Shown: in pieces, positions 22,322-55,461 of the stretch
Numbering within the stretch: the first letter of the stretch is position 1
How the letters are laid out: each line of letters starts with the position of its first letter
Program-made: the position numbers and the translations under genes
The notes under the pieces: generated by a model
Told to the model about the DNA's origin: nothing
Database searches by the model: none
What the model saw: only the letters and a program-made list of their open reading frames with translations
DNA from: an uncultured Spirochaetota bacterium
GTDB lineage: Bacteria > Spirochaetota > Brevinematia > Brevinematales > JAOACQ01
Reading direction: 5' to 3'
NCBI GenBank assembly: GCA_963835575.1
Contig: CAWIGG010000002.1
Span: 704,001 to 768,000, forward strand
Length of the DNA: 64,000 nt

Positions 22322-22354
22322 AAGCCCTCTCAGGTTACTTATAATATTATAATA

Positions 22355-22860
22355 AAAAGCAGGCCTGTAAGCCGGGTTCTGTTTCCCTCACCATTTTGTG
22401 AGCCCCGGCGGGAAGACCTGCAAAATGGTGAGGGACGGGAAACATCTATCTGGTTTTATTCTTACGAATAAACTCCAGCGGTTTACCCGCATTCCCTGAT
22501 TTATCATCAGCCGCAAAGCCGCGGCATGGAATGCCTATTTAACCTTGCATCCCAGGGGGTTTGCAATGCCGGGCTGTTTACACAGCCCGCGGTGGTCTCT
22601 TGCACCGCCTTTTCACCCTTACCCAGCACCACTTACGCATCAGGTATTCGCCGAAGGATATAGATTGATGCGTAAGTGGTGCTGGACGGTATATTTTCTG
22701 TTGCACTTTCCATCCCTGCAAAAGCAGGGTCCGGCTGTTAACCGGCCTGTTGCTTTTTGATGCCCGGACTTTCCTCCCAGCACCACTTGCGCATCCGGTC
22801 TTCATCAGAGGATATAGATTGATGCGTAAGTGGTGCTGGGCGTTTCCCCGGCCTGCTTTT
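22355..22860 (-). ncRNA. rnpB: RNase P RNA (class A), unusually long
   Basis: Minus strand has GAGGAAAGTCCGGGC, GGAAAGTGCAACAGA, GGGTGAAAAGGCGGTGCAAGAGAC, ACAGAACCCGGCTTAC; P1 AAAAGCAGGCC pairs with GGCCTGCTTTT. Confidence 0.95.
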
Positions 22861-28421: not shown

Positions 28422-28768
28422 ACACCAAGGGTAACCCGCGAATGCACGCGAATAAACACGCGAATGAGAAATAAAAGCTGGACGCTGAGTAACCGCAGTG
28501 TTGCTTTACGGTCACTTCGATATGCGGTTTTGCCGCTACACTTTGACTAATGCTCAGTGCGGCGCTCAGTGACCGATCTTTTAAAATAAATGCGGTGTAT
28601 CGAAGCGTCCATATAAATAATCATTTATTATAAAATCCACACCATTCGCTTCTTCCGCGTGCAATTGGGATATTAAGCAAGGATTTTAAATTAATGACTT
28701 TTTATATTAAAATTAACACCAGTAAAACAACTTTGTGGATCTTGGCGGTTCTTTGTGTCTTGGTGGTT
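28421..28768. repeat. Nested intergenic inverted-repeat elements (CACNAAG, CGCGAAT and CTTCGA/GCTCAG REP-like families)
   Basis: Arms at 28434-28465/28644-28670, 28480-28610 and 28731-28768. Confidence 0.7.
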
Positions 28769-31473: not shown

Positions 31474-31604
31474 AAACACCTGGACAAAAAGACACTAAGA
31501 TTCACAAACGGGGTTATCCGCGAATGCACGCGAATTTACGCAAATTGGAATAAAGTTTTGAATCGAATAATTTTCATTAGCGTGTATTCGCGTGACTTCG
31601 CGGA
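31474..31604. repeat. CACNAAG-type arm followed by complete CGCGAAT-type inverted-repeat element
   Basis: TCCGCGAAT GCACGCGAAT TTACGCAAAT (31517-31545) vs ATTAGCGTGT ATTCGCGTGA CTTCGCGGA (31576-31604). Confidence 0.75.
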
Positions 31605-31615
31605 AGACTTGTTAT

Positions 31616-33727: not shown

Positions 33728-33800
33728 TCCCCTGTAGCTCAGTTGGCAGAGCAGGTGACTGTTAATCACCGGGCCGTAGGTTCGAGCCCTACCGGGGGAG
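33728..33800 (+). tRNA. tRNA-Asn (GTT), CCA not encoded
   Basis: TCCCCTG acceptor / CGGGGGA-G, anticodon loop CTGTTAA, GGTTCGAGCCC T-arm. Confidence 0.96.
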
Positions 33801-42351: not shown

Positions 42352-42816
42352 ATGGAAGAAAAAATTATCGATTTTCTTCGAAATCCGAAAATCTTCAGCG
42401 ATTTGAAGCCCGAAGAGCTCGAAAGGATAGCGAATACCATGGTGATCAAAAGTTACAATGAAAACGACCAGATTTTTCAGGAAGGAGAGCTGGGGAATGA
42501 ATTTTATGTCATCCTTTCCGGGAGCGTGTGGGTCCGTAAAAAGGACAGCGCGGGGAATGAACATCAGCTGACAGTCATTAATACCGGCGAAGGCTTCGGA
42601 GAGATGGCGCTTGTTGATGAGCTTCCACGGTCCGCCGGTGTAAAAGCACTGGAAAAAACAAGGGTGGCGGTCCTGTCGAGGGATGCATTTATGAAAATGA
42701 AGTCAGAAAATATCGCGGTATACTGCCATATCCTGGAAAATATTGTCAGAGAATTCAGCACCCGGCTCCGCAGTATGGACCTCAAATATGTCAAGGTCAT
42801 GAATTTCCTTTTCTGA
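42352..42816 (+). CDS. Cyclic nucleotide-binding domain protein
   Basis: FQEGE.G..FYVILSG, FGEMAL...PRSA. Confidence 0.9.
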   Translation: MEEKIIDFLRNPKIFSDLKPEELERIANTMVIKSYNENDQIFQEGELGNEFYVILSGSVWVRKKDSAGNEHQLTVINTGEGFGEMALVDELPRSAGVKALEKTRVAVLSRDAFMKMKSENIAVYCHILENIVREFSTRLRSMDLKYVKVMNFLF

Positions 42817-42832
42817 TTGAATATCAATTTTC

Positions 42833-43438
42833 ACCACGAAGACACGAAGAACACGAAGATCACAAAGAACAATGCAATAAAAGTATATTTGATTATTTAA
42901 GCTTTGAGTATTGTGTTTAAGCAATATTTATTGATAATAAGAGAAAAAGCGGAAATAAATATGGAAACAAATCAATTTATAGACGGGATAGAAAAGATGG
43001 CTAAGGATATTGTCGATTGCGCTTATAAAGTACATTACAGTTTAGGACCGGGCTGTATATGAAGAATGCATGTCATATGAATTAAATAAGAAAAATATCC
43101 CTTATAAAAAGCAATGCAGTGTTCCCATTAATTATGAAGGGGTCAGACTGGCGACTGAACTGAGGCTTGATTTTCTTGTTGATGATAAAATAATTGTGGA
43201 ATTAAAAGCCGTGGAGCAGATGAATAAAATATATGAATCACAGCTCTTAACCTATTTGAAATTAACCGGGAAAAGACTTGGGTTTTTAATTAATTTCAAT
43301 GTTAGTAAAATTAAAGACGGTATTAAGAGAATGGTTTTATAAATATTCAAAAATTATTTAAAAAATAAATAATCCCCAGTTAGTGATTCTTGGTGCCCGG
43401 AGCTTGTCCTGAGCGCAGCGAAGGATGTCTTTGTGTTT
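42833..43438. mobile_element. Putative GxxExxY-carrying element bounded by tandem-unit inverted arms
   Basis: Left arm ACCACGAAG ACACGAAG AACACGAAG ATCACAAAG; right arm GTTAGTGATTCTTGGTG..TCTTTGTGTTT; same arms without a gene at 55300-55401. Confidence 0.55.
42961..43342 (+). pseudogene. GxxExxY protein (PD-(D/E)XK-like), frameshifted
   Basis: IVDCAYKVHYSLGPG, then frameshift at 43054, then VYEECMSYEL...RLDFLVDDKIIVELKA...QLLTYLK...GFLINF; the LLES motif residues are missing (about 11-nt deletion). Confidence 0.88.
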
Positions 43439-43472: not shown

Positions 43473-44588
43473 ATGTTTATGCAAGCTGAAACCAATAAGA
43501 GAATACCCTTTGATACAATGGAAAAATTTATGGTCGATGTATTTATCTGCGCCGGCGTGCCTGAAGAGGACGCGAAGGTCTGCGCCGATGTGCTCATCAC
43601 TTCCGACAAAAGAGGGATCGATTCGCATGGAATAGGCCGGCTCAAGCCTATCTATATTGACAGGATCCGCACCGGGCAGATCAACCCCAGAACAAAAATC
43701 GACGTGATTAAAGATGGGCCTACCACGGCGGTATTTGACGGCAATAACGGCATGGGCCAGGTGATAGGCAGGCATGCCATGCAGACGGCGATCGATAAGG
43801 CGAAGAAATACGGAATGGGTATGACAACGGTCAGGAACTCCAATCATTACGGTATTGCCGGCTATTACGCGCTGATGGCTGTGGAAAACGGCATGATCGG
43901 TATAACCGGCACGAACGCGCGCCCGTCCATCGCGCCGACATTCGGCGTTGAGAATATGCTGGGAACAAACCCGCTGACATTCGGAATGCCCACCGACGAG
44001 GAATTCCCTTTTGTGCTTGACTGCGCCACGTCCATCACCCAGCGCGGAAAGATCGAGGTCTATGCCAGGCAGGGAAAAAAACTGCCGGAAGGATGGGTGA
44101 TCGGGATTGACGGACAGGCAAAAACAGACGCCATCAGCGTTCTGGGCGAGCTGGTGGAAGGCTCCGCGGCGCTGACGCCTCTGGGCGGCATCGGCGAGGA
44201 AACGGCGGGCTACAAAGGCTACGGCTACGCCGCGGTTGTCGAAATCCTCTCCTCGGCGCTCCAGGGCGGGGCATTCCTTAAAGGGCTGCTCGGTTTTGAG
44301 GGAGGCAGCATAGTGCCCTACCGGCTCGGGCATTTCTTTATGGCCGTCGATATCAGCTCTTTTACCGAACCGGACAGCTTCAAAAAAACAACGGGAACTA
44401 TCCTCAGGGCCCTCCGCGCCTCGGAAAAAATGCCGGGCAGGGAACGGATTTATACTGCCGGTGAGAAGGAATACATGGCCTGGCTGGACAGAAAGGACAG
44501 CGGCGTGCCCATCGATGAAGTCCTGAAGGAAGAGATCCTGGAACTGCAGAAGGAATTCGGGCTGGAGCGGTATAAGTTCGAGTTTTAA
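43473..44588 (+). CDS. Ldh_2 family (type 2 malate/L-lactate dehydrogenase-like) oxidoreductase
   Basis: GIDSHG, SNHYG, GTNP, LDCATS, GYKGYG. Confidence 0.92.
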   Translation: MFMQAETNKRIPFDTMEKFMVDVFICAGVPEEDAKVCADVLITSDKRGIDSHGIGRLKPIYIDRIRTGQINPRTKIDVIKDGPTTAVFDGNNGMGQVIGRHAMQTAIDKAKKYGMGMTTVRNSNHYGIAGYYALMAVENGMIGITGTNARPSIAPTFGVENMLGTNPLTFGMPTDEEFPFVLDCATSITQRGKIEVYARQGKKLPEGWVIGIDGQAKTDAISVLGELVEGSAALTPLGGIGEETAGYKGYGYAAVVEILSSALQGGAFLKGLLGFEGGSIVPYRLGHFFMAVDISSFTEPDSFKKTTGTILRALRASEKMPGRERIYTAGEKEYMAWLDRKDSGVPIDEVLKEEILELQKEFGLERYKFEF

Positions 44589-44590
44589 AA

Positions 44591-44769
44591 TTGCCACAGA
44601 CACAGAAGTCACAGAGGACAGGGCGAGAATTTGGGTGTTTAAATGTTTGCCGCTTCTCAAAGTTTTAAATACAGACATTTATTAAAATAGAAAGTTTTGG
44701 AATAGCCACGGAGAACACAGAGGATAAAAATATAGAAAATTCTCCGTGCCCTCTGCGCCTCTGTGGCAA
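44591..44769. repeat. CACAGAG-type tandem-unit inverted-repeat element
   Basis: TTGCCACAGACACAGAAGTCACAGAG ... GCCACGGAGAACACAGAG ... CTCCGTGCCCTCTGCGCCTCTGTGGCAA. Confidence 0.7.
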
Positions 44770-46679: not shown

Positions 46680-46845
46680 AATATTTCTCCTGATATATCG
46701 TTTTGAAAACTTATAATCCATCCATTGTGCGTCACCTGAATGTTTCCATGTCATTACTTGATAGCCGTTTTAAATTATGTTAGCATGATTTTCTTCAATT
46801 CACAATAAAACCGCAGAATATTTGCGGAAAGGAGGGCCCAGCCGG

Positions 46846-49800
46846 ATGCCCAATACGCTCATCATAGTCAAAACAGCCGTTCTGGGGTGCGCCGTCCTTG
46901 TCCTCATCATGCTCTACCGATTGTCCCGGCGTCCGGGCGGGCCGTTCAGAAAAACACTTATAGTACTATCGCTTTTCTTTTCGTCCGCATATATCCTCTG
47001 GAGGATTTTTTACACTTCGCCCTACAGAACGCCCGAGGATAATCCCGTCTTCCTGATTTTTTTCATTATTCTGCTCCTGATGGAATTTCTGGATTTCCTG
47101 AATGCCGTTGTCCTCAAGATGATCTCATGGAACCCATACGTCCCGCCAAAAATCCCGGACAATGACGAAGGGACGGTGCAGTCCGTCGATGTTTTGGTCC
47201 TGACATTCCATGAGGATATCGGGCTCCTGGAAAAAACAGCCGCCGCATGCCTCCGTTTGAAGTACGCGGGAGATTTTCTGAGAATTCATATCTGCGACGA
47301 CGCCGCCCGCCCCGAAGTGGAGGAACTGAGCCGCCGCCTGAATATCAATTATATAAAGAGGGATAGGCCCGACAACGCCAAGGCCGGGAATATCAATAAT
47401 GCCCTCGGGCAGACAAGCGGCGCGCTCGTGCTGGTCCTGGACGCCGACATGATCGTCCGGCAGGACTTTCTTGAGAAGACGGTCCCGTATTTTTTACGGC
47501 CGGAAACGGGGTTCGTCCAGGCCCCGCAGACATTCTACAACCCCGATCCTTTCCAGCACAACCTGCGCCTGGACCGGCGCGTTCCGAACGAGCAGGACCT
47601 CTTTATGCGGCATATCGAACCCTGCCGCGCCTCGGCCAACGCCGTCCTCCATGTCGGCACGAACGCCGTGTTCAGGAGGAGCGCATTGGAAAAAGCAGGC
47701 GGCGTACCATATGGAAGCGTCACGGAAGACCTGGCGCTGGGCCTTTTGGTCGAGTCTTTGGGTTATGAGGGCTTTACTATCGGCACGGGGAAAGACTGCA
47801 TAAAGGTTGTCAGCATTGAAACGAATGCTTTGAGCAATCTGACGGGCTTTACGGTTTCGAACGCCGCGGACGAGCCTTTCAATACAGGCGCAATCCGCGT
47901 TGATAACCATGGCCTCTCCTACAGCATGGCGCAGACCGGCGTCAAGGAAAACATCTTCAATAATTACAGTTATCCTTCGGGGTATGATCCGGGCCTTGTC
48001 CGTATTTCGGACTGGGACATCGGACTCTTTACTTACACAAATGGCGGGCTGACGAACGCGGCCTCGGGCCTCTTCGCGGCTGACATCTTTAACTCCTTTA
48101 ATCATGGTCTGACGCCGGAAGAACAGAACGGTAGCTTTACGGTCCTGGCGGACAACCCGTCGCAATTTGTCTACAGGACGTTCGAACAGGGCATGCCGTC
48201 GACAAACGGGGATATTTTCACGAACGTCTGGGACGGCGTGAACGAGAATACCGGCATGGTGATGCCTGACGGCGTGTATTACTCGAAAGTTTACTCGTTC
48301 GACGCCGCGTCCAACCAGTCGGCGCGGACCATCCCGTTCGAGATCGACAATACGCCGCCGTCTCTCGCCGTGACATATCCCGTAACGGATCAAACTGTTG
48401 GCGGGATGATCGACATCACCGGCTCGATCATCGATAAAAGGCTTGCGTATTACACGGCCGTCATATCGAACAACGGCGTAGGGTACGATGTTTCCTCGGG
48501 AACCGGCGTCGTTTCGAACGGCGTCATCGGCAGTTTCGATACCCTGGGCCTTGTAAATAACATCGAAAGCCGGCTGTATATCACCGCTGTGGACGGCGTA
48601 AGCAACAGCGCCTCAATCTGCGTTCCCTTTATAATCACTAACAGCGAGGACGTCGTCTTCAGGATCGTGAAGGTGGAGAACAGCGTCCTGAATTCGAAAG
48701 GCAGATTAAGAATAACGTATTATTATAAAGACGTTACGGTTTCCATTCAGGACGCAGGGATGCCGGTATTCCAGACAAATTATACAACAGAGGGAACGGA
48801 TGTCTTTGAGTTCACGCCGGCGGGAAAGACGGATGGAAATTATACTCTTGCATTCCAGGCCCTTGTGAATATACCCGGCAGAAATCCCGTTGTCCGGAAT
48901 GTTTCCTACGAAGTGGACAACACGCCCCCTGCTCTCGCGATGACCGGCTTAAGCGGCGGCGGCATTCTGCGCGGAGTGATCGGTTTTGACGGGAGCGTTA
49001 TAGATAAAAACCTCCTCAGCTATAGTCTCATATTGTCCAACAGTACGGGCGATGAAGAGAGCGTGATTGTTTCGGAAGGCATGACCGGAATTTCATCCGG
49101 GAGGATCGGGGTCTTTGACAGCGCCGGCATCAACGCGAACTCGCCCTTTGACGGGACAAACCAGTATGCCGTCATCCTGAGGGCTTATGATTCCGCCGGG
49201 AATACGAACGAGATCGTAAAAACCATATATATCGATAATGCGGAGCCGTTTGCCGACCTTACGGCCGGCAGGAAATACAGGCTTTCCGGCCTGAATGGAC
49301 CGGCGGCCCTGACCCTGACGGCTCAGGACGTGCACCTGGCCGGCGCTTCGCTTTACACAATGGACAGCGGCGGGATCTATCATAAAACGGTTGACTGGAG
49401 CGGTATCGTTTCCGGCGTCAACACCGTCACTTGGAACTGTTCGTCATTGTCGGGAACTGTTCCGGCGGCGCTTTATACCTATGACCTGGCGGGGAACACG
49501 AATACAAGGACTTACACATTTACAATTGATAATAAAGTTCCCGAGATCAGGAATCTGACTGCCTCTCAGGCCATGACCAGGCTTATCCTCTCCGCCGATC
49601 TCTGGGACAACGATCTTCTGGCGCGTTATGAAGTGGGCGTTCAGAGCGGTCCGGAATACCGCGTCTACGCATCGGAGGATATGGAAACGAACGAGAGATC
49701 AATCTCCGTTGACGAGGCCTTTGCGGACTTCGAAGCCTCCGCCGCGACGGTGTTCGTCAAGGTGTGGGATTTTGCCGGCAATGAAACGGTCACGAATTTT

Positions 49801-52800
49801 GATATCACTGCGGACAGCCTGCCGCCCGTGGCGGGAATAGAGACGCCTTCGGACAATACCGTAAGCGGCGGCGTCATGCATTTCAAGGGAACGCTGCTTG
49901 ACAACAATATGGCGCGCGCGGAGCTCCTGCTGGACGGTACAGTCATATACAGCGTCCTCTGCGGCGCTTTTTCCAATACAATTGAGTATGATCTTGATAC
50001 AAAGGGCCTGCCCGACGGGACGCACAGCCTCACATTGCGCGGTTATGACTATGCCGGAAATGTCGGCGCGGCCTTTGTCCGCTTTACATCGGACAATACG
50101 CCGCCGCTGATCAGCCTGCGCGCCCTCAGGAATGGAAGCGACGCTTCCATAGGCGCGTCCGCCGGCGCTCTCGATTTCTATCTCAATTACAGCGACGCGA
50201 ACCCCGCTTCCTATAAGCTGACGTTCATAAACGGCGGCATTCAGGAAACGGCGCTGGAAGGGACAGTGGAGAGTATCTACAGCGGCCGGTTTATCGGAAC
50301 GCTGGATACGGCAGTGCGGAACCTTAATGGAATATATCAATTTATGATTGAAGGCGTTGACCTTGCGGGGAACAGATCGACAAATTATCTTACTCTTGAC
50401 ATAGACAACTCGGCGCCTGTTCTTGCCTGGAACTCGCTGGATTCCGGCAGGGCTTTTGACAGCCCCGGTTTCCTCCCGAAGGTCAGGGGCATTGTCAGCG
50501 CGGGCTTTACGCTGACGGACGCTCACAGCGTTAATTATACCGCTTCATGCGGCGCTCTGACCTCTACAGGCACCGTTAACAGCGGCGCTGTCGTATGGCC
50601 TCTTGACACGGCTCTTATGGGCGAAGGATTGCAGAGTCTTGAAATAACGGCCGTCGACGCTACGGGCAACAGGAGCAGCTGGACAACCAATTTTATTGTG
50701 GACAGGACGGCCCCCGCGCTCAGCCTGACGGCAGGCCCTGAAATATACTCGCCGCTGGTACCGGACAATAAGCTGAATATCAATGTGACTGCGAATGAGA
50801 CGGTTAAATTACAGTCTGTAGAAATAGACGATGAAACAGGCCTGAAAGGGAAGCTGGATATAACCGGCGTTATACCGGCAGGCAGTTCGCTGTTTGCCTG
50901 GGACGGAAGGACCGCCGGCGCGGCATTGCCGGATGGAAATTACCGCATTAAGGTAACAGCCTCGGACGAAGCCGGAAATACCTCGGAAGCCTGTTCGGGA
51001 ACTATTTTCTATAGAAACGATAACAGGCCGCCTCTGGTGACGGTCCTGGAAACGAACAACGTCTTCTCGCCCGCGCTGAGGCCGTTCAGGATCAGGTATG
51101 AAGCCCTGAATGATTCAACCGACCTTTCTAATATAGTCATCAGTACGCTGACTGTCAGTTCGGCGGGAATGGATGTTTTCAGGATTGTTGCGACAAACCA
51201 GGAAGGTGTTATCGGATTGGAATGGAACGGCCTTAACTCAACAGGCAGGGCGCCCGATGGAAATTATGACGCGATTCTCAATGTCGCCGATGCCGCCGGG
51301 AACGCGGTACAGGTCCGCTTCGTTATCACTGTTGATTCTGTTCCGCCTGTTCTGGAGCAGTTGACGCTAAGCAGGGTGAAAATATCGAAGAATAATCCGT
51401 TGAAGAACCAGAGCGAGATTCATCTCGCGGTCAGCGATAAAAACTTGATTGAATCAATGATGTACAGTATCGACAGGTATGATATGAATATACTGGAAAC
51501 AACGAATGAGGTTGGTTTATCAAATTATATTCTTGACAGCGTATTTAAAGAAGAGGACAACGCTCTTTATACAATCAGCTTCTCTTTCATCGACTCCGCG
51601 TCCAACGAGTCGAAATTTACCACCAATATTGAGGTGGATAATAATCCGCCTGACTTCGGACTGGATATGAAAGGAAATTACTTTACGACGAATGACGGTT
51701 CTGAATTAAAGATTTTTGTCAATACGAATGTAACGGTCAGGCCCGTCATCGAATCGGCCGATACTGCCGCGATGTACTGGGGCCTTGTGCCGGAAGGAAC
51801 AGCCCCGGTCCTCGCTGAATGCACGACAAATGATGTCATGAAGCTTGAAGGAAAAGCGGACGGGAGATACATGTTTACAAGGGCGGCCGTGGATGATGTG
51901 GGCAACGGATTAACCAATTCATTGATATTTACCGTAGACGGAACTTCCCCGTTTGTTTCACTGAACTACCCGTCAAATCAAATTGGGATTGGCCTTCTGA
52001 CTAACGGCGGGAAGAAATATCTTTCTTTCAGCAACGAAATTATTGTTCAGGGGAGCGACAGCGGAAGCGGTCTGGCCGGATTATGGATCAGGGTTGAGAA
52101 CCTCTCGAACGGCTATTTTGATGAAATACCTCTGGAAGATCCTTCCAACAGCCTGAGCTTTGACAGCCTGGGGATTAACGAACCCGGTGATTATCTCATA
52201 ACGGCTGTTGCTTTCGATCATGTGACGAATATCGGCGTGACCTGGGATTATGTCAGCCTGCCTCTGCCCGACAGGACCCCGCCTGTCAGCGCCCTTGCCA
52301 TAAGCGGAAGCTATAACGTTATCAACGGCGATGTTTACGCCAGTTCCAACACGACGTTTATCATCACAGCCGCGGATAATCCAGGCCTGAATGACGGCTG
52401 CGCTTCAGGAGTCAACAGGACCGAGATATCCATAAACGGCGGAGACTGGCAGACCTACAGCGTTCCAGTAATATTTACAATGAGCGGAACATATGTCATG
52501 GAATACAGGTCTGTGGATAACGCCGGCAATATTGAAGAAGCTAAAACGGTCAGGGTTATTGTTCAGAATAGCGTAACGGCGGTATCAGGCCTCCGCAGCC
52601 TGGTGCTTGACAGGACAAATATCATCTATCAGTGGAATATCACAAACAATATTGCGCCGGAAAACTTTGAGTTAACGGCCCTCGGCACCAACTTTACAAC
52701 AACGAACAGCTATTTTATATTGACTAACATTGCTCTTGCCCTGACCAATATGCCTCTCTTTGTCGAGGCAAAAGTGAGGGCTGTCAATCAGGCCGGGCTC

Positions 52801-55296
52801 TATTCCGCGTACCTGATTATGACAAATATTCTGGATACTATCATAGACATCCGCCAGCCTTCCATGGGAGGCACAAACTATTTTAAGGAAGCGATACCTG
52901 TTTATTCGGAATTCCAGAATGAAGACCGCTCTATAAAGACCCTGGATTATTACGGTTATTTATCGAATGACGCGCTGATGGTCCCGACAAACTGGACGCT
53001 TGTTTCTGAGGATGAAAATTATAATAATGATAATAAGCTTTCTGAATATATCTGGAAACAGGAAGGCAATAATCAATACCCTGTTCTGGGCGACGGGAAA
53101 TATGCCGTTCGCGTCGGCTATTCTGATGTTAAGGGTAATATCCGCACCGATGCCAGGTTTGTGAATGTGGATAATACGCCGCCCGCTGCCGAATGCCTTG
53201 TTGACGGTATAAAGCCGGCATCGAATTTTGTTCAGGCGGTCAATTCCTGCATTTTCAGCATTAATGCTTCTGATCCTGTGTCCAATGGGGTCTCTTCCGG
53301 CGTCAGGAGGATATGGTACGCTGTGGATCAACAATCCTATAATAAACAAATAGTGAATTTCCAGCCTGATAAAGATTTCATCAGCCGCTGTATCAGTAAT
53401 AACGGAAGCGGTGATGATTATCAGGTTTACACAGGCCCGATCAAACTGACAAAAGGTGTTTATACGATCGCATACTTCGGCGAGGACTGGGCGCAGAAAG
53501 CGGATATTATAGATGATATTGAAAATAATGGTATGAATAAAAATGAAGAAAACTGGGAAGGCAATTTGAGCGAAGCTCAATTTATTACAATCGAAGTCAG
53601 GGAAGACAGCACAGTACCTGTTGATGTGACGCCGCCTGTAATTACAATATCCGGCGTATCTAATTCGGCATATTATAATAAGCCGGTTAATATCACTGTG
53701 AGCGCTTCAGACGCCGCGCTCAGCGGAATAAAAGTAATACTTGACGGCAATGAACAGACTCATAACGCGTTTACCGTGAGCGGCGAGGGCAGTCATATCC
53801 TGAAAGCCTCTGCCTGGGATATGTCCGGCAATACAAACAGTATGGAGCTTTCTTTTGTGATAGATACGGTCTCTCCGCTGATCACTGTCAACGGCTTGAG
53901 CAATACAAACCTCATAGTTCCGGCGCAAATCTCATATACAGTCAGCGATGAGAATCTGGATTCTTATTCGGCGCGGCTGAATGGAACGCTTCTGACGACT
54001 AATTCGTTTGTTGTCTCCAATGCCGGTTCATACACACTGTCCATAACAGCGCTCGACAGGGCGGGGAATGTGTCCATATATGCAGGGACGTTCACAGCTT
54101 CCGAAATTGATATAACGCCGCCTGTTATTACGGTTACCGGGGTCGGGGAAGGAAGGTACACAAATATTAATCTTTATCTGACAATCACAGTGGAGGATAA
54201 AAATCTCCTGACAAACAAGACTGAAATATTGGCGGACGGGAAATATTATGCAATTACTAATGGAAAGGCTTATGTATCATTCAAATCCGAAGGGTCGCAT
54301 GTTCTTTCGATCTACGCGGAAGATAAATATCATAATGTCTCGGCTTACTATAAGGAAATCATCATCGATAGGAAGGCGCCCCTGATAGAAGTATTGAATG
54401 TTTTTGATCAGCACAGCTATCTGCGGGTGAAGCCGCTTGTCAGGATTACGGATGATTCCGGCAGTATTGTTAACTCGGACGAGTATCTGGTGAAGAATGG
54501 AAATGTCACGAATATCTATACTAATTCTATGATCACCAATACAGGCAGTTATTCGCTCTTTATTATGGCGATAGATGAGGCGGGTAATGCGGCTTATACC
54601 AATATCCGCTTTAATATAGTTAAAGATCCTGACAGCACGATTCTCCTCTATGCCGGGTTTGAGTACCGTGATTCTGCGACAGTATTCTATGGAACAGGCG
54701 GGAATACTATTGCCAATATGACTAACCGTCCTCAATATATCGACGGGTACTATGGCCAGGGCATCATTGCCCATAAAAAGGATTCTCCTGGAGTATCTTA
54801 CAGTATGAAAAGCAATGTTATATGGAACCCGGTTAAAGGCGCTGTCGAATTCGCCTTTAAAAAGTTCTGGTATGAATACTTCTATTGTCATTATGAAAAG
54901 ATGACGCTGTTTGAGGTTAAAGATGATAGTTCCCCTGTCTTCAGCATTTATGTAGACCGGACATACCGCATTATTGTGTCTGCCGGCGGGACAAATTGTG
55001 TTTTGGATGAGAACCGGGATAATGAAGGTGATGAACATGAGCATGATTGGGACAGATGGAGCAAAGTAAAAGTGGTCTATGACCTGAACCCGGCAGACGG
55101 TAAACCTGTGATCAAGCTATATATAGGTGATATTTTAAAAGGCAAATGGTTTATCACAGCACCGGTTATAAATGCGGCCGGAAAGAACTACCGGATTAAT
55201 TTCGGCTTCGGCGAAGGCGAAAAGTGTTATACAGACGAACACATGCACCTGGATGAGTTGAAGATTTTTGAGGATTTTATTGATTTAAAGGATTAA
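46846..55296 (+). CDS. In-frame chimera: truncated cellulose-synthase-like GT2 fused to a giant Ig-like / FlgD-repeat surface protein
   Basis: GT2 motifs DD, KAGNIN, DAD, QAPQ.F, TED up to about 47770; no QxxRW; then D.TPP / D.AGN Ig repeats, three W(D/N)G...PDG.Y motifs and a LamG-like C-terminus. Confidence 0.75.
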   Translation: MPNTLIIVKTAVLGCAVLVLIMLYRLSRRPGGPFRKTLIVLSLFFSSAYILWRIFYTSPYRTPEDNPVFLIFFIILLLMEFLDFLNAVVLKMISWNPYVPPKIPDNDEGTVQSVDVLVLTFHEDIGLLEKTAAACLRLKYAGDFLRIHICDDAARPEVEELSRRLNINYIKRDRPDNAKAGNINNALGQTSGALVLVLDADMIVRQDFLEKTVPYFLRPETGFVQAPQTFYNPDPFQHNLRLDRRVPNEQDLFMRHIEPCRASANAVLHVGTNAVFRRSALEKAGGVPYGSVTEDLALGLLVESLGYEGFTIGTGKDCIKVVSIETNALSNLTGFTVSNAADEPFNTGAIRVDNHGLSYSMAQTGVKENIFNNYSYPSGYDPGLVRISDWDIGLFTYTNGGLTNAASGLFAADIFNSFNHGLTPEEQNGSFTVLADNPSQFVYRTFEQGMPSTNGDIFTNVWDGVNENTGMVMPDGVYYSKVYSFDAASNQSARTIPFEIDNTPPSLAVTYPVTDQTVGGMIDITGSIIDKRLAYYTAVISNNGVGYDVSSGTGVVSNGVIGSFDTLGLVNNIESRLYITAVDGVSNSASICVPFIITNSEDVVFRIVKVENSVLNSKGRLRITYYYKDVTVSIQDAGMPVFQTNYTTEGTDVFEFTPAGKTDGNYTLAFQALVNIPGRNPVVRNVSYEVDNTPPALAMTGLSGGGILRGVIGFDGSVIDKNLLSYSLILSNSTGDEESVIVSEGMTGISSGRIGVFDSAGINANSPFDGTNQYAVILRAYDSAGNTNEIVKTIYIDNAEPFADLTAGRKYRLSGLNGPAALTLTAQDVHLAGASLYTMDSGGIYHKTVDWSGIVSGVNTVTWNCSSLSGTVPAALYTYDLAGNTNTRTYTFTIDNKVPEIRNLTASQAMTRLILSADLWDNDLLARYEVGVQSGPEYRVYASEDMETNERSISVDEAFADFEASAATVFVKVWDFAGNETVTNFDITADSLPPVAGIETPSDNTVSGGVMHFKGTLLDNNMARAELLLDGTVIYSVLCGAFSNTIEYDLDTKGLPDGTHSLTLRGYDYAGNVGAAFVRFTSDNTPPLISLRALRNGSDASIGASAGALDFYLNYSDANPASYKLTFINGGIQETALEGTVESIYSGRFIGTLDTAVRNLNGIYQFMIEGVDLAGNRSTNYLTLDIDNSAPVLAWNSLDSGRAFDSPGFLPKVRGIVSAGFTLTDAHSVNYTASCGALTSTGTVNSGAVVWPLDTALMGEGLQSLEITAVDATGNRSSWTTNFIVDRTAPALSLTAGPEIYSPLVPDNKLNINVTANETVKLQSVEIDDETGLKGKLDITGVIPAGSSLFAWDGRTAGAALPDGNYRIKVTASDEAGNTSEACSGTIFYRNDNRPPLVTVLETNNVFSPALRPFRIRYEALNDSTDLSNIVISTLTVSSAGMDVFRIVATNQEGVIGLEWNGLNSTGRAPDGNYDAILNVADAAGNAVQVRFVITVDSVPPVLEQLTLSRVKISKNNPLKNQSEIHLAVSDKNLIESMMYSIDRYDMNILETTNEVGLSNYILDSVFKEEDNALYTISFSFIDSASNESKFTTNIEVDNNPPDFGLDMKGNYFTTNDGSELKIFVNTNVTVRPVIESADTAAMYWGLVPEGTAPVLAECTTNDVMKLEGKADGRYMFTRAAVDDVGNGLTNSLIFTVDGTSPFVSLNYPSNQIGIGLLTNGGKKYLSFSNEIIVQGSDSGSGLAGLWIRVENLSNGYFDEIPLEDPSNSLSFDSLGINEPGDYLITAVAFDHVTNIGVTWDYVSLPLPDRTPPVSALAISGSYNVINGDVYASSNTTFIITAADNPGLNDGCASGVNRTEISINGGDWQTYSVPVIFTMSGTYVMEYRSVDNAGNIEEAKTVRVIVQNSVTAVSGLRSLVLDRTNIIYQWNITNNIAPENFELTALGTNFTTTNSYFILTNIALALTNMPLFVEAKVRAVNQAGLYSAYLIMTNILDTIIDIRQPSMGGTNYFKEAIPVYSEFQNEDRSIKTLDYYGYLSNDALMVPTNWTLVSEDENYNNDNKLSEYIWKQEGNNQYPVLGDGKYAVRVGYSDVKGNIRTDARFVNVDNTPPAAECLVDGIKPASNFVQAVNSCIFSINASDPVSNGVSSGVRRIWYAVDQQSYNKQIVNFQPDKDFISRCISNNGSGDDYQVYTGPIKLTKGVYTIAYFGEDWAQKADIIDDIENNGMNKNEENWEGNLSEAQFITIEVREDSTVPVDVTPPVITISGVSNSAYYNKPVNITVSASDAALSGIKVILDGNEQTHNAFTVSGEGSHILKASAWDMSGNTNSMELSFVIDTVSPLITVNGLSNTNLIVPAQISYTVSDENLDSYSARLNGTLLTTNSFVVSNAGSYTLSITALDRAGNVSIYAGTFTASEIDITPPVITVTGVGEGRYTNINLYLTITVEDKNLLTNKTEILADGKYYAITNGKAYVSFKSEGSHVLSIYAEDKYHNVSAYYKEIIIDRKAPLIEVLNVFDQHSYLRVKPLVRITDDSGSIVNSDEYLVKNGNVTNIYTNSMITNTGSYSLFIMAIDEAGNAAYTNIRFNIVKDPDSTILLYAGFEYRDSATVFYGTGGNTIANMTNRPQYIDGYYGQGIIAHKKDSPGVSYSMKSNVIWNPVKGAVEFAFKKFWYEYFYCHYEKMTLFEVKDDSSPVFSIYVDRTYRIIVSAGGTNCVLDENRDNEGDEHEHDWDRWSKVKVVYDLNPADGKPVIKLYIGDILKGKWFITAPVINAAGKNYRINFGFGEGEKCYTDEHMHLDELKIFEDFIDLKD

Positions 55297-55299
55297 ATA

Positions 55300-55401
55300 A
55301 ACCACGAAGACACGAAGAGCACGAAGGACCACAAAGGAAAAAGGGTATTAAGAATAATACCAATGTTAGTGAATCTTGGTGTTCTTTGTGTCTTAGTGGT
55401 T
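55300..55401. repeat. Empty (102-bp) CACNAAG-type inverted-repeat element
   Basis: AACCACGAAG ACACGAAG AGCACGAAG GACCACAAAG ... GTTAGTGAAT CTTGGTGTT CTTTGTGT CTTAGTGGTT. Confidence 0.8.
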
Positions 55402-55461
55402 AAAAATAAGAATTTATTAAACCAAAAATCTTACTTTATTGAATGATAATAGGAGAATTTT

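Follow-up and report, generated by a model that had tools for sequence, protein, structure and literature searches.

Predicted GxxExxY nuclease genes lie between inverted arms of a lineage-matched tandem repeat in Spirochaetota and other bacteria

Introduction

Two described systems come closest to the locus reported here. According to the accessible text on the first, Ssn nucleases are encoded by tiny single-domain genes that carry their own repeat (NTS/SRM) on both sides, with hundreds of gene-less repeat copies, lineage-specific repeat variants, and no transposase (PMC11893778). The second group comprises RAYT/REPIN systems, REPtrons, and TIRtrons, which are described, in the accessible portions of the sources, as inverted doublets with a variable spacer and asymmetric ends, a bias toward positions downstream of genes, one repeat type per enzyme lineage, and higher-order nesting (PMC3116915, PMC3733652, PMC6006769). 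In addition, Xanthomonas genomes contain arrays of about four intergenic GGGAATC heptamers, many of them in inward pairs, that are close to the upstream ORF and rare between divergent genes; the accessible part of that report links no enzyme to the arrays (PMC4692102).

GxxExxY proteins (PDDEXK_3) are widespread and, as far as the accessible text goes, listed as being of unknown function (PMC3424549). One literature account, available in part, places a GxxExxY gene next to a reverse transcriptase. Here, we describe GxxExxY genes enclosed by inward-facing arms that are built from a tandem 7-base word. The nuclease-repeat system is real, phylum-spanning, and apparently undescribed: a literature search, covering mainly openly accessible texts without their supplements, turned up no account that ties the gene to such arms. 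Apart from the GGGAATC word and the lack of a linked enzyme, the traits listed above for Ssn/SRM, RAYT/REPIN, and the Xanthomonas arrays recur in it. It works like Ssn/SRM and RAYT/REPIN and belongs to neither.

Results and Discussion

A broken GxxExxY gene between inverted arms

The window, a 64,000-nt stretch (positions 704001 to 768000 of contig C2) of a 4.39-Mb Spirochaetota assembly that is 94% complete (G000), contains the focal cassette at 42833-43438. It is located between two host genes on the plus strand, encoding a protein with a cNMP-binding domain (42352-42816) and an Ldh_2 family protein (43473-44588). The left arm (42833-42868, plus strand) starts 17 nt past the stop codon of the cNMP-binding gene and consists of four CACNAAG units with a spacing of 8/9/9. 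The right arm (43380-43438, minus strand) is inverted and is split by a 25-nt insert (43401-43425, plus strand) of a second short repeat family. The enclosure of a GxxExxY gene by a four-unit left arm and an inverted right arm, as proposed in the initial annotation, is therefore confirmed, with a broken gene and an interrupted right arm.

The gene itself (42961-43342) matches PF13366 (97 bits) and TIGR04256 (104 bits) above their cut-offs, and it is frameshifted. Its 5' piece (42961-43062, plus strand) runs from an ATG for 33 aa to a stop and shares 48% identity with the N terminus of protein L111, whereas the 3' piece (43052-43342, plus strand) lies in a different frame and retains the D, ExK, and QxxxY motifs. 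Relative to the family pattern, about 11 nt are absent, including the codon of the invariant, eponymous Glu, which is lost at the break; no intact frame with this residue is present. The focal copy is a dead copy of the cassette and, as a pseudogene, is ruled out as the autonomous partner that it had been taken for. In L111, the nearest sampled relative of the focal protein (62%), arms of the focal four-unit type recur at a different site. No outside match of at least 60 nt to the focal cassette was found by blastn, a promoter scan stayed at chance level (4 versus 3.7), and a metagenome scan with the cNMP-binding protein returned a single weak locus, which was uninformative.

Several other arms are present in the window. 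A gene-less inward pair of the same subfamily lies at 55301-55402, with about 28 to 30 nt between its arms, as first described (about 28 bp), and has only these arms in common with the focal cassette. As RNA, this pair folds with -45.7 kcal/mol (z of -9.4; none of 200 shuffles was equally good), and either strand, like the DNA form, gives a good fold (z of -9.4, -8.1, and -7.1). The gene after the pair was not found in five relatives with one query. Two further arms, at 28731-28768 and 31474-31513, are indeed there, but the earlier label of single arms does not hold, since both are parts of nested composites. The first is an inverted four-unit arm in the purB-mutS gap (composite at 28423-28768) and faces a truncated CACNAAG unit and a CGCNAA arm of a second family (28437-28465). 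The other is a degenerate CACNAAG arm, followed by a CGCNAA 10/10 alpha/beta pair (31519-31545, plus strand, and 31576-31602, minus strand; composite at 31474-31608). A gene-less pair of the CACNGAG subfamily is located downstream of the Ldh_2 gene (44705-44768, with the pair at 44707-44765).

Covariance models of Rfam families gave no match on the arms; their matches in the window were RNase P RNA (22352-22859, minus strand, 508 nt versus a 367-position model) and a tRNA (33728-33800). The window also holds a 2824-aa ORF (46822-55296) with an N-terminal family-2 glycosyltransferase, many Ig-like domains, and an FlgD-like domain.

Arms are intergenic, inward paired, and conserved in their word

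The arm unit can be generalized as CRCNRAK, repeated three to four times at 8- to 10-nt spacing. Genome-wide, 278 arms of at least three units were counted, compared to 0, 1, and 3 in three shuffles, which excludes chance; under a slightly stricter spacer the count is 277. The arms are spread over 178 gaps. According to crude ORF calls, 262 of the 277 are intergenic and 15 are genic. Convergent gaps are enriched in arms (79/262 versus 347/2103) and divergent gaps are depleted (25/262 versus 482/2103). An inward partner within 700 nt was found for 174/277 arms and an outward one for 31/277. Together with the folding, this reproduces the inverted extragenic hairpin doublets of RAYT/REPIN systems. 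Unlike these, the arms lack a GTAG/CGTC tag and are not self-palindromic. They differ from the Xanthomonas arrays, as described in the accessible text, in having another word, spacers of one to three variable bases, and no quadruplex-forming G-tracts (PMC4692102). An SRM is, in its accessible description (PMC11893778), one hairpin of 20 to 50 nt, whereas a GxxExxY arm is a tandem array that is not itself a palindrome and has its partner arm as the only pairing mate.

Several arm subfamilies exist, and partner arms are mostly of one subfamily. The largest subfamily has two distinct ends (49 alpha and 46 beta), which are combined in each of its 23 inward pairs. No covariation between arms was detected in 6 variable columns of 23 pairs. 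Since alpha pairs with beta without covariation, the ends are defined by conserved sequence words more than by base pairing. REPINs, in contrast, show compensatory changes, as reported in the portions available (PMC3116915, PMC3733652, PMC6006769). The sense strand is the more stable one in 31/53 pairs, and pairing has no strand preference.

With 28% GC, the interiors are rich in AT; most of them are unique or 75 to 89% alike. An outside match of at least 40 nt was found for 37/98 interiors, 33 of which match at below 90%, and only 2/252 distant arm-flank matches exceed 90%. Conversely, 19 fixed arm positions show no mismatch in 115 arms, one in 28, and two in 14, compared to approximately 43, 66, and 48 arms expected at 7.5% decay; A/G swaps, which the word permits, account for many of these changes. 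Copying followed by decay would leave either a larger share of near-identical copies or arms in a more decayed state. With near-identical copies rare and fixed positions almost intact, copying alone is insufficient, and the arms seem to be maintained in place. What would keep them intact after insertion is either conversion that follows cutting or selection by the host.

No target duplication was detected at 88 pairs: the longest shared flank word measures 5.09, versus 4.85 +/- 0.11 for shuffled flanks. Neither was a fixed-position repeat found flanking these pairs, and old copies could have lost a duplication. The suggested IS/MITE analogy fails on these missing duplications and on the unique interiors. 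Gene-bearing and internally deleted forms do share their ends, as in IS/MITE pairs, but a DDE enzyme, a cognate transposase with the same ends, and families of near-identical copies are absent. A genuine 99-bp IS1182 MITE in the same genome is, unlike the arm pairs, near-identical across copies. The absent duplication and the probable lodging in an older arm (see below) fit homing endonuclease elements, in which the enzyme cuts the empty allele and repair copies the element without a duplication; for GxxExxY, such cutting is a prediction.

GxxExxY genes and arms occur together and match by lineage

By eye, all nine GxxExxY genes of the genome have arms, of various subfamilies; the strict pattern is present at eight, and L005 has variant words. 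Six of the nine copies are open frames and three are broken. In a GTDB sample of 80 loci across phyla (the best hits to L001, hence mostly members of a single clade; 6 were left out because their flanks were short), an arm lies within 250 nt at 72/74 loci and an inward pair encloses 53/74, compared to 0/62 inward pairs in far-flank controls. For Ssn, the corresponding proportion of genes flanked on both sides is 42% in the accessible text (PMC11893778).

Among 31 relatives, all 11 gene-bearing genomes have arms (12 to 299), and 17 of the 20 gene-lacking genomes have none. The gene was not detected in the remaining three, G001, G008, and G025 (73% complete), yet these have 16 to 35 arms. Within the genus, arm number is patchy, from 0 to 299. 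A phylum sample of 151 genomes, in which kin are not independent, includes 31 genomes with a strong gene match and 120 others. At least 5 arms occur in 24/31 versus 17/120 of these, and at least 50 arms in 9/31 versus 0/120; 7/31 gene-bearing genomes have fewer than 5. Both associations that the initial annotation had put forward for checking, arm enrichment at the flanks of the gene and co-occurrence of arms and gene per genome, are thus borne out.

The word of the arms follows the protein tree. On a tree of 108 proteins, 29 word changes are needed, compared to 51 with shuffled labels (minimum of 43); the trees (a quick method and FastTree, 117 columns) have mostly weak forks. The 18 of 126 proteins without a CRCNRAK arm were left off this tree, and several of them show other words by eye. 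A link between residue 3 and base 5 is concordant in 87/102 cases, which amount to four independent pairs only (p of 0.5). Arms of words outside CRCNRAK (e.g., ACAGGAT-type) were observed for the GxxExxY lineages L138, L139, L145, L147, L149, L151, and L155.

Filled and empty junctions, deletion derivatives, and nesting

The cNMP-Ldh junction is informative in one congener, G004, where it is about 40 nt long and element-free; G001 to G003 carry another gene after the cNMP-binding gene. The junctions that hold cassettes L001, L002, and L004 are short and arm-free in all syntenic relatives (4, 5, and 1 genomes), namely, porA-porB in 4/4, oppC-oppD in 5/5, and lemA-DUF2207 in 1/1. The purB-mutS gap is arm-free in 4/4 congeners as well, with at most 77 nt between matches. 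The proposed comparison of orthologous sites thus yields five junctions that are filled here and empty in relatives. Insertion breakpoints could not be mapped because the relatives are only about 70% identical.

The neighbors of 126 GxxExxY genes (240 ORFs in 206 clusters) are mostly housekeeping genes, e.g., porA/porB, oppC/oppD, and atpE/atpF. Among the 22 multi-member clusters, with 49/240 neighbors scanned against Pfam, no recurring transposase was found. Cassettes are co-oriented with the upstream gene in 99/122 cases. Two Methylococcales (L097 and L107) have the GxxExxY cassette between an atpE and an atpF-like gene.

Interior sequence of cassette L006 recurs at 11 loci that are gene-less or decayed, and two of them keep the gene start before the deletion. 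Judged by their sequence, these loci are true non-autonomous derivatives. The earlier notion of an autonomous and non-autonomous pair consequently stands for the CACAGAT subfamily but not for the focal one, for whose cassette interior no gene-less derivatives were found. Gene-less copies at distant sites can also be homologous (87% over 123 nt).

One Bacteroidales site illustrates nesting. L091 carries a CGCAAAG cassette there, while in L047, L073, L086, and L100 the same site has a stub of an L091-type arm and, next to it, a cassette of a different lineage with the word CACAGAG. These four are 77 to 85% alike, whereas the flanking proteins are 52 to 70% alike; L056 has the second (CACAGAG) cassette without the stub. 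This suggests that a cassette landed in the arm of an older one.

GxxExxY proteins are predicted RecB/Cas4-type nucleases

E23, D63, E73-x-K75, and Q87 are invariant and Y91 is near-invariant in the family. These residues match RecB motifs I to III and the QxxxY motif, as listed for Cas4 in the accessible text of PMC8610317. The predicted structure (pLDDT of 96) has a PD-(D/E)XK core, and its best structural rows are to Cas4 SSO0001 (Foldseek E of 0.002; Z of 7.9, rmsd of 3.3, 96 aligned residues), a weak match that lacks specificity, as its Z score is tied with those of restriction and repair enzymes. Foldseek gave no hits at an E of ≤0.001, and no PDB sequence relatives were found at an E of ≤1. 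On motifs and model, GxxExxY is predicted to be a RecB/Cas4-type nuclease. Unlike Cas4, it has only about 125 aa and lacks Fe-S cysteines and a CRISPR link. The fold also separates it, by profile and model, from Ssn, which is of the GIY-YIG type (cd10448). In contrast to RAYT systems, the cassette has no HUH/Tyr transposase, and the gene between the repeats is of the PF13366 family. The protein shows purifying selection (dN/dS of 0.03 to 0.09 in 8 of 10 pairs not saturated, with synonymous sites near saturation).

A selfish cassette and its alternatives

Our preferred reading, to which we give an even chance, is a selfish, transposase-free cassette: the nuclease would cut its own arms, and host repair would copy the cassettes. 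Binding and cleavage by the predicted RecB/Cas4-type nuclease would be directed at arms of its own word, probably on single-stranded DNA or a mismatched hairpin, by analogy with Ssn. Host repair would then fill the break with a copy of DNA bounded by arms, whether or not this includes the gene. The reading builds on the anatomy of the cassette, the match of word and protein lineage, insertions at junctions that relatives have empty, derivatives with internal deletions, the nesting in older arms, and the purifying selection on the protein. PD-(D/E)XK enzymes hydrolyze DNA, and we know of no strand-joining chemistry for this fold, so spread would need host repair. Several observations argue against this reading: the few signs of recent copying beside arms that barely decay, the arms of G001, G008, and G025 and of the 17 phylum genomes mentioned above, in which the gene was not detected, the 7 gene-bearing genomes with fewer than 5 arms, the 18 genes that lack a CRCNRAK arm, the few independent pairs behind the residue-base link, the unspecific fold match, and the arm pairs within IS1182-type ends (see below). 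More tentatively, and less likely than not as a whole, it could be extended to a new class of mobile DNA. In this class, a 125-residue RecB/Cas4-type nuclease would read a tandem 7-base word and cut such arms, host repair would paste the cassette and gene-less or cargo-bearing pairs into operon junctions and older arms, and each protein lineage would have one word.

Fairly unlikely is a domesticated system, in which host selection preserves the arms, the nuclease serves their function, and movement is rare and old. Placed behind stop codons, the arms would then act as marks or as hairpins, either in mRNA stability or in the screening of single-stranded DNA, incoming or looped out, as with Ssn; SsnA is described, in the accessible text, as modulating transformation (PMC11893778). 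The fixed positions that barely decay between diverging interiors fit this explanation, as does the concentration of arms in intergenic and convergent gaps and their depletion from divergent ones, and it keeps its standing because the arms seem to be maintained in place. It sits poorly with the patchy arm numbers in the genus, the three broken genes of nine, several unrelated GxxExxY lineages in one genome, and the lack of both strand preference and covariation between partner arms.

We consider it unlikely that a conventional transposase (IS1182 DDE, RAYT, or IS91-type) moves the arms in trans, with GxxExxY as cargo or an accessory binder. The genome has a 1701-bp IS1182-type element (DUF772 and DDE_Tnp_1_6; L161, C6:115052-116752) and six other copies of it; IS1272 offers a comparison, as far as its accessible description goes (PMC5678879). 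Five of the seven copies are inside CACNGAG arms, at one constant unit position, and two copies join the first halves of facing arms, as if the interior had been replaced. Several CACGAAG pairs are located within IS1182-type ends, and some arm pairs could have moved there as passengers. However, the ends of the element differ from the arms, which serve as its targets. Likewise, the distance between a RAYT-like Y1 transposase gene (L167, C2:500552-501097) and an arm cluster is about 250 nt, but this gene comes with GTAG palindromes of its own, one of which falls within the coding sequence. A search of the genome for PF04986 (IS91) gave no match, but its control was silent too, so that this result weighs little against an IS91-type enzyme. 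The absence of a recurring transposase beside the 126 genes, the word that tracks the GxxExxY tree, and the lack of target duplication at 88 pairs all argue against a transposase in trans.

Very unlikely, finally, are arms that serve the gene solely as operators or as stems for RNA processing, as in cassettes resembling intervening sequences, and spread by ordinary recombination and slippage, with gene-less pairs as relics of many old gene insertions: the deletion series in one subfamily and the co-orientation of most cassettes with the upstream gene agree with this, but cassette entry into some 178 gaps, homologous gene-less copies at distant sites, and intact arms on relics are left unexplained. 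An assembly artifact was rejected, as arms occur in many genomes, as were a G-quadruplex role, given the lack of G-tracts, and a Tn7-like TnsA role, given that no DDE partner was found.

For GxxExxY, the arms are a named, lineage-matched candidate substrate, which makes its function testable with oligonucleotides. If the selfish reading is right and GxxExxY drives the spread, it would be the third enzyme fold in repeat-associated selfish systems, after HUH (RAYT) and GIY-YIG (Ssn), and would account for intergenic repeats that number in the hundreds and occur in many phyla. If its word reading is truly lineage specific, the family would offer a library, provided by nature, of sequence-specific nucleases of very small size.

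Other sequences in and between arms

Low-GC single genes occur between inward arms, often of different subfamilies, as in a possible capture of cargo (C3:96930-98081, C4:112503-114165, C4:370487-371944, C4:995673-997566, and C2:1434564-1435464 in G000). One of these possible cargoes is what we take, from its sequence, to be a nucleotidyltransferase/HEPN-like pair. Fifteen near-identical copies of the 99-bp MITE share IS1182-type ends and lie mostly in another short repeat.

The arms double as landing sites for the IS1182-type element and for the short repeat seen in the focal right arm. This 24- to 26-nt repeat has a CTGAGC...CGAAG core and is inserted in arms at a similar unit position, in the window (43401-43425), at C2:528906, C2:1613242, C4:223914, and C4:234580 of the genome, and at L006 and L110. 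It recalls the small dispersed repeats of cyanobacteria reportedly described by Elhai et al. in 2008.
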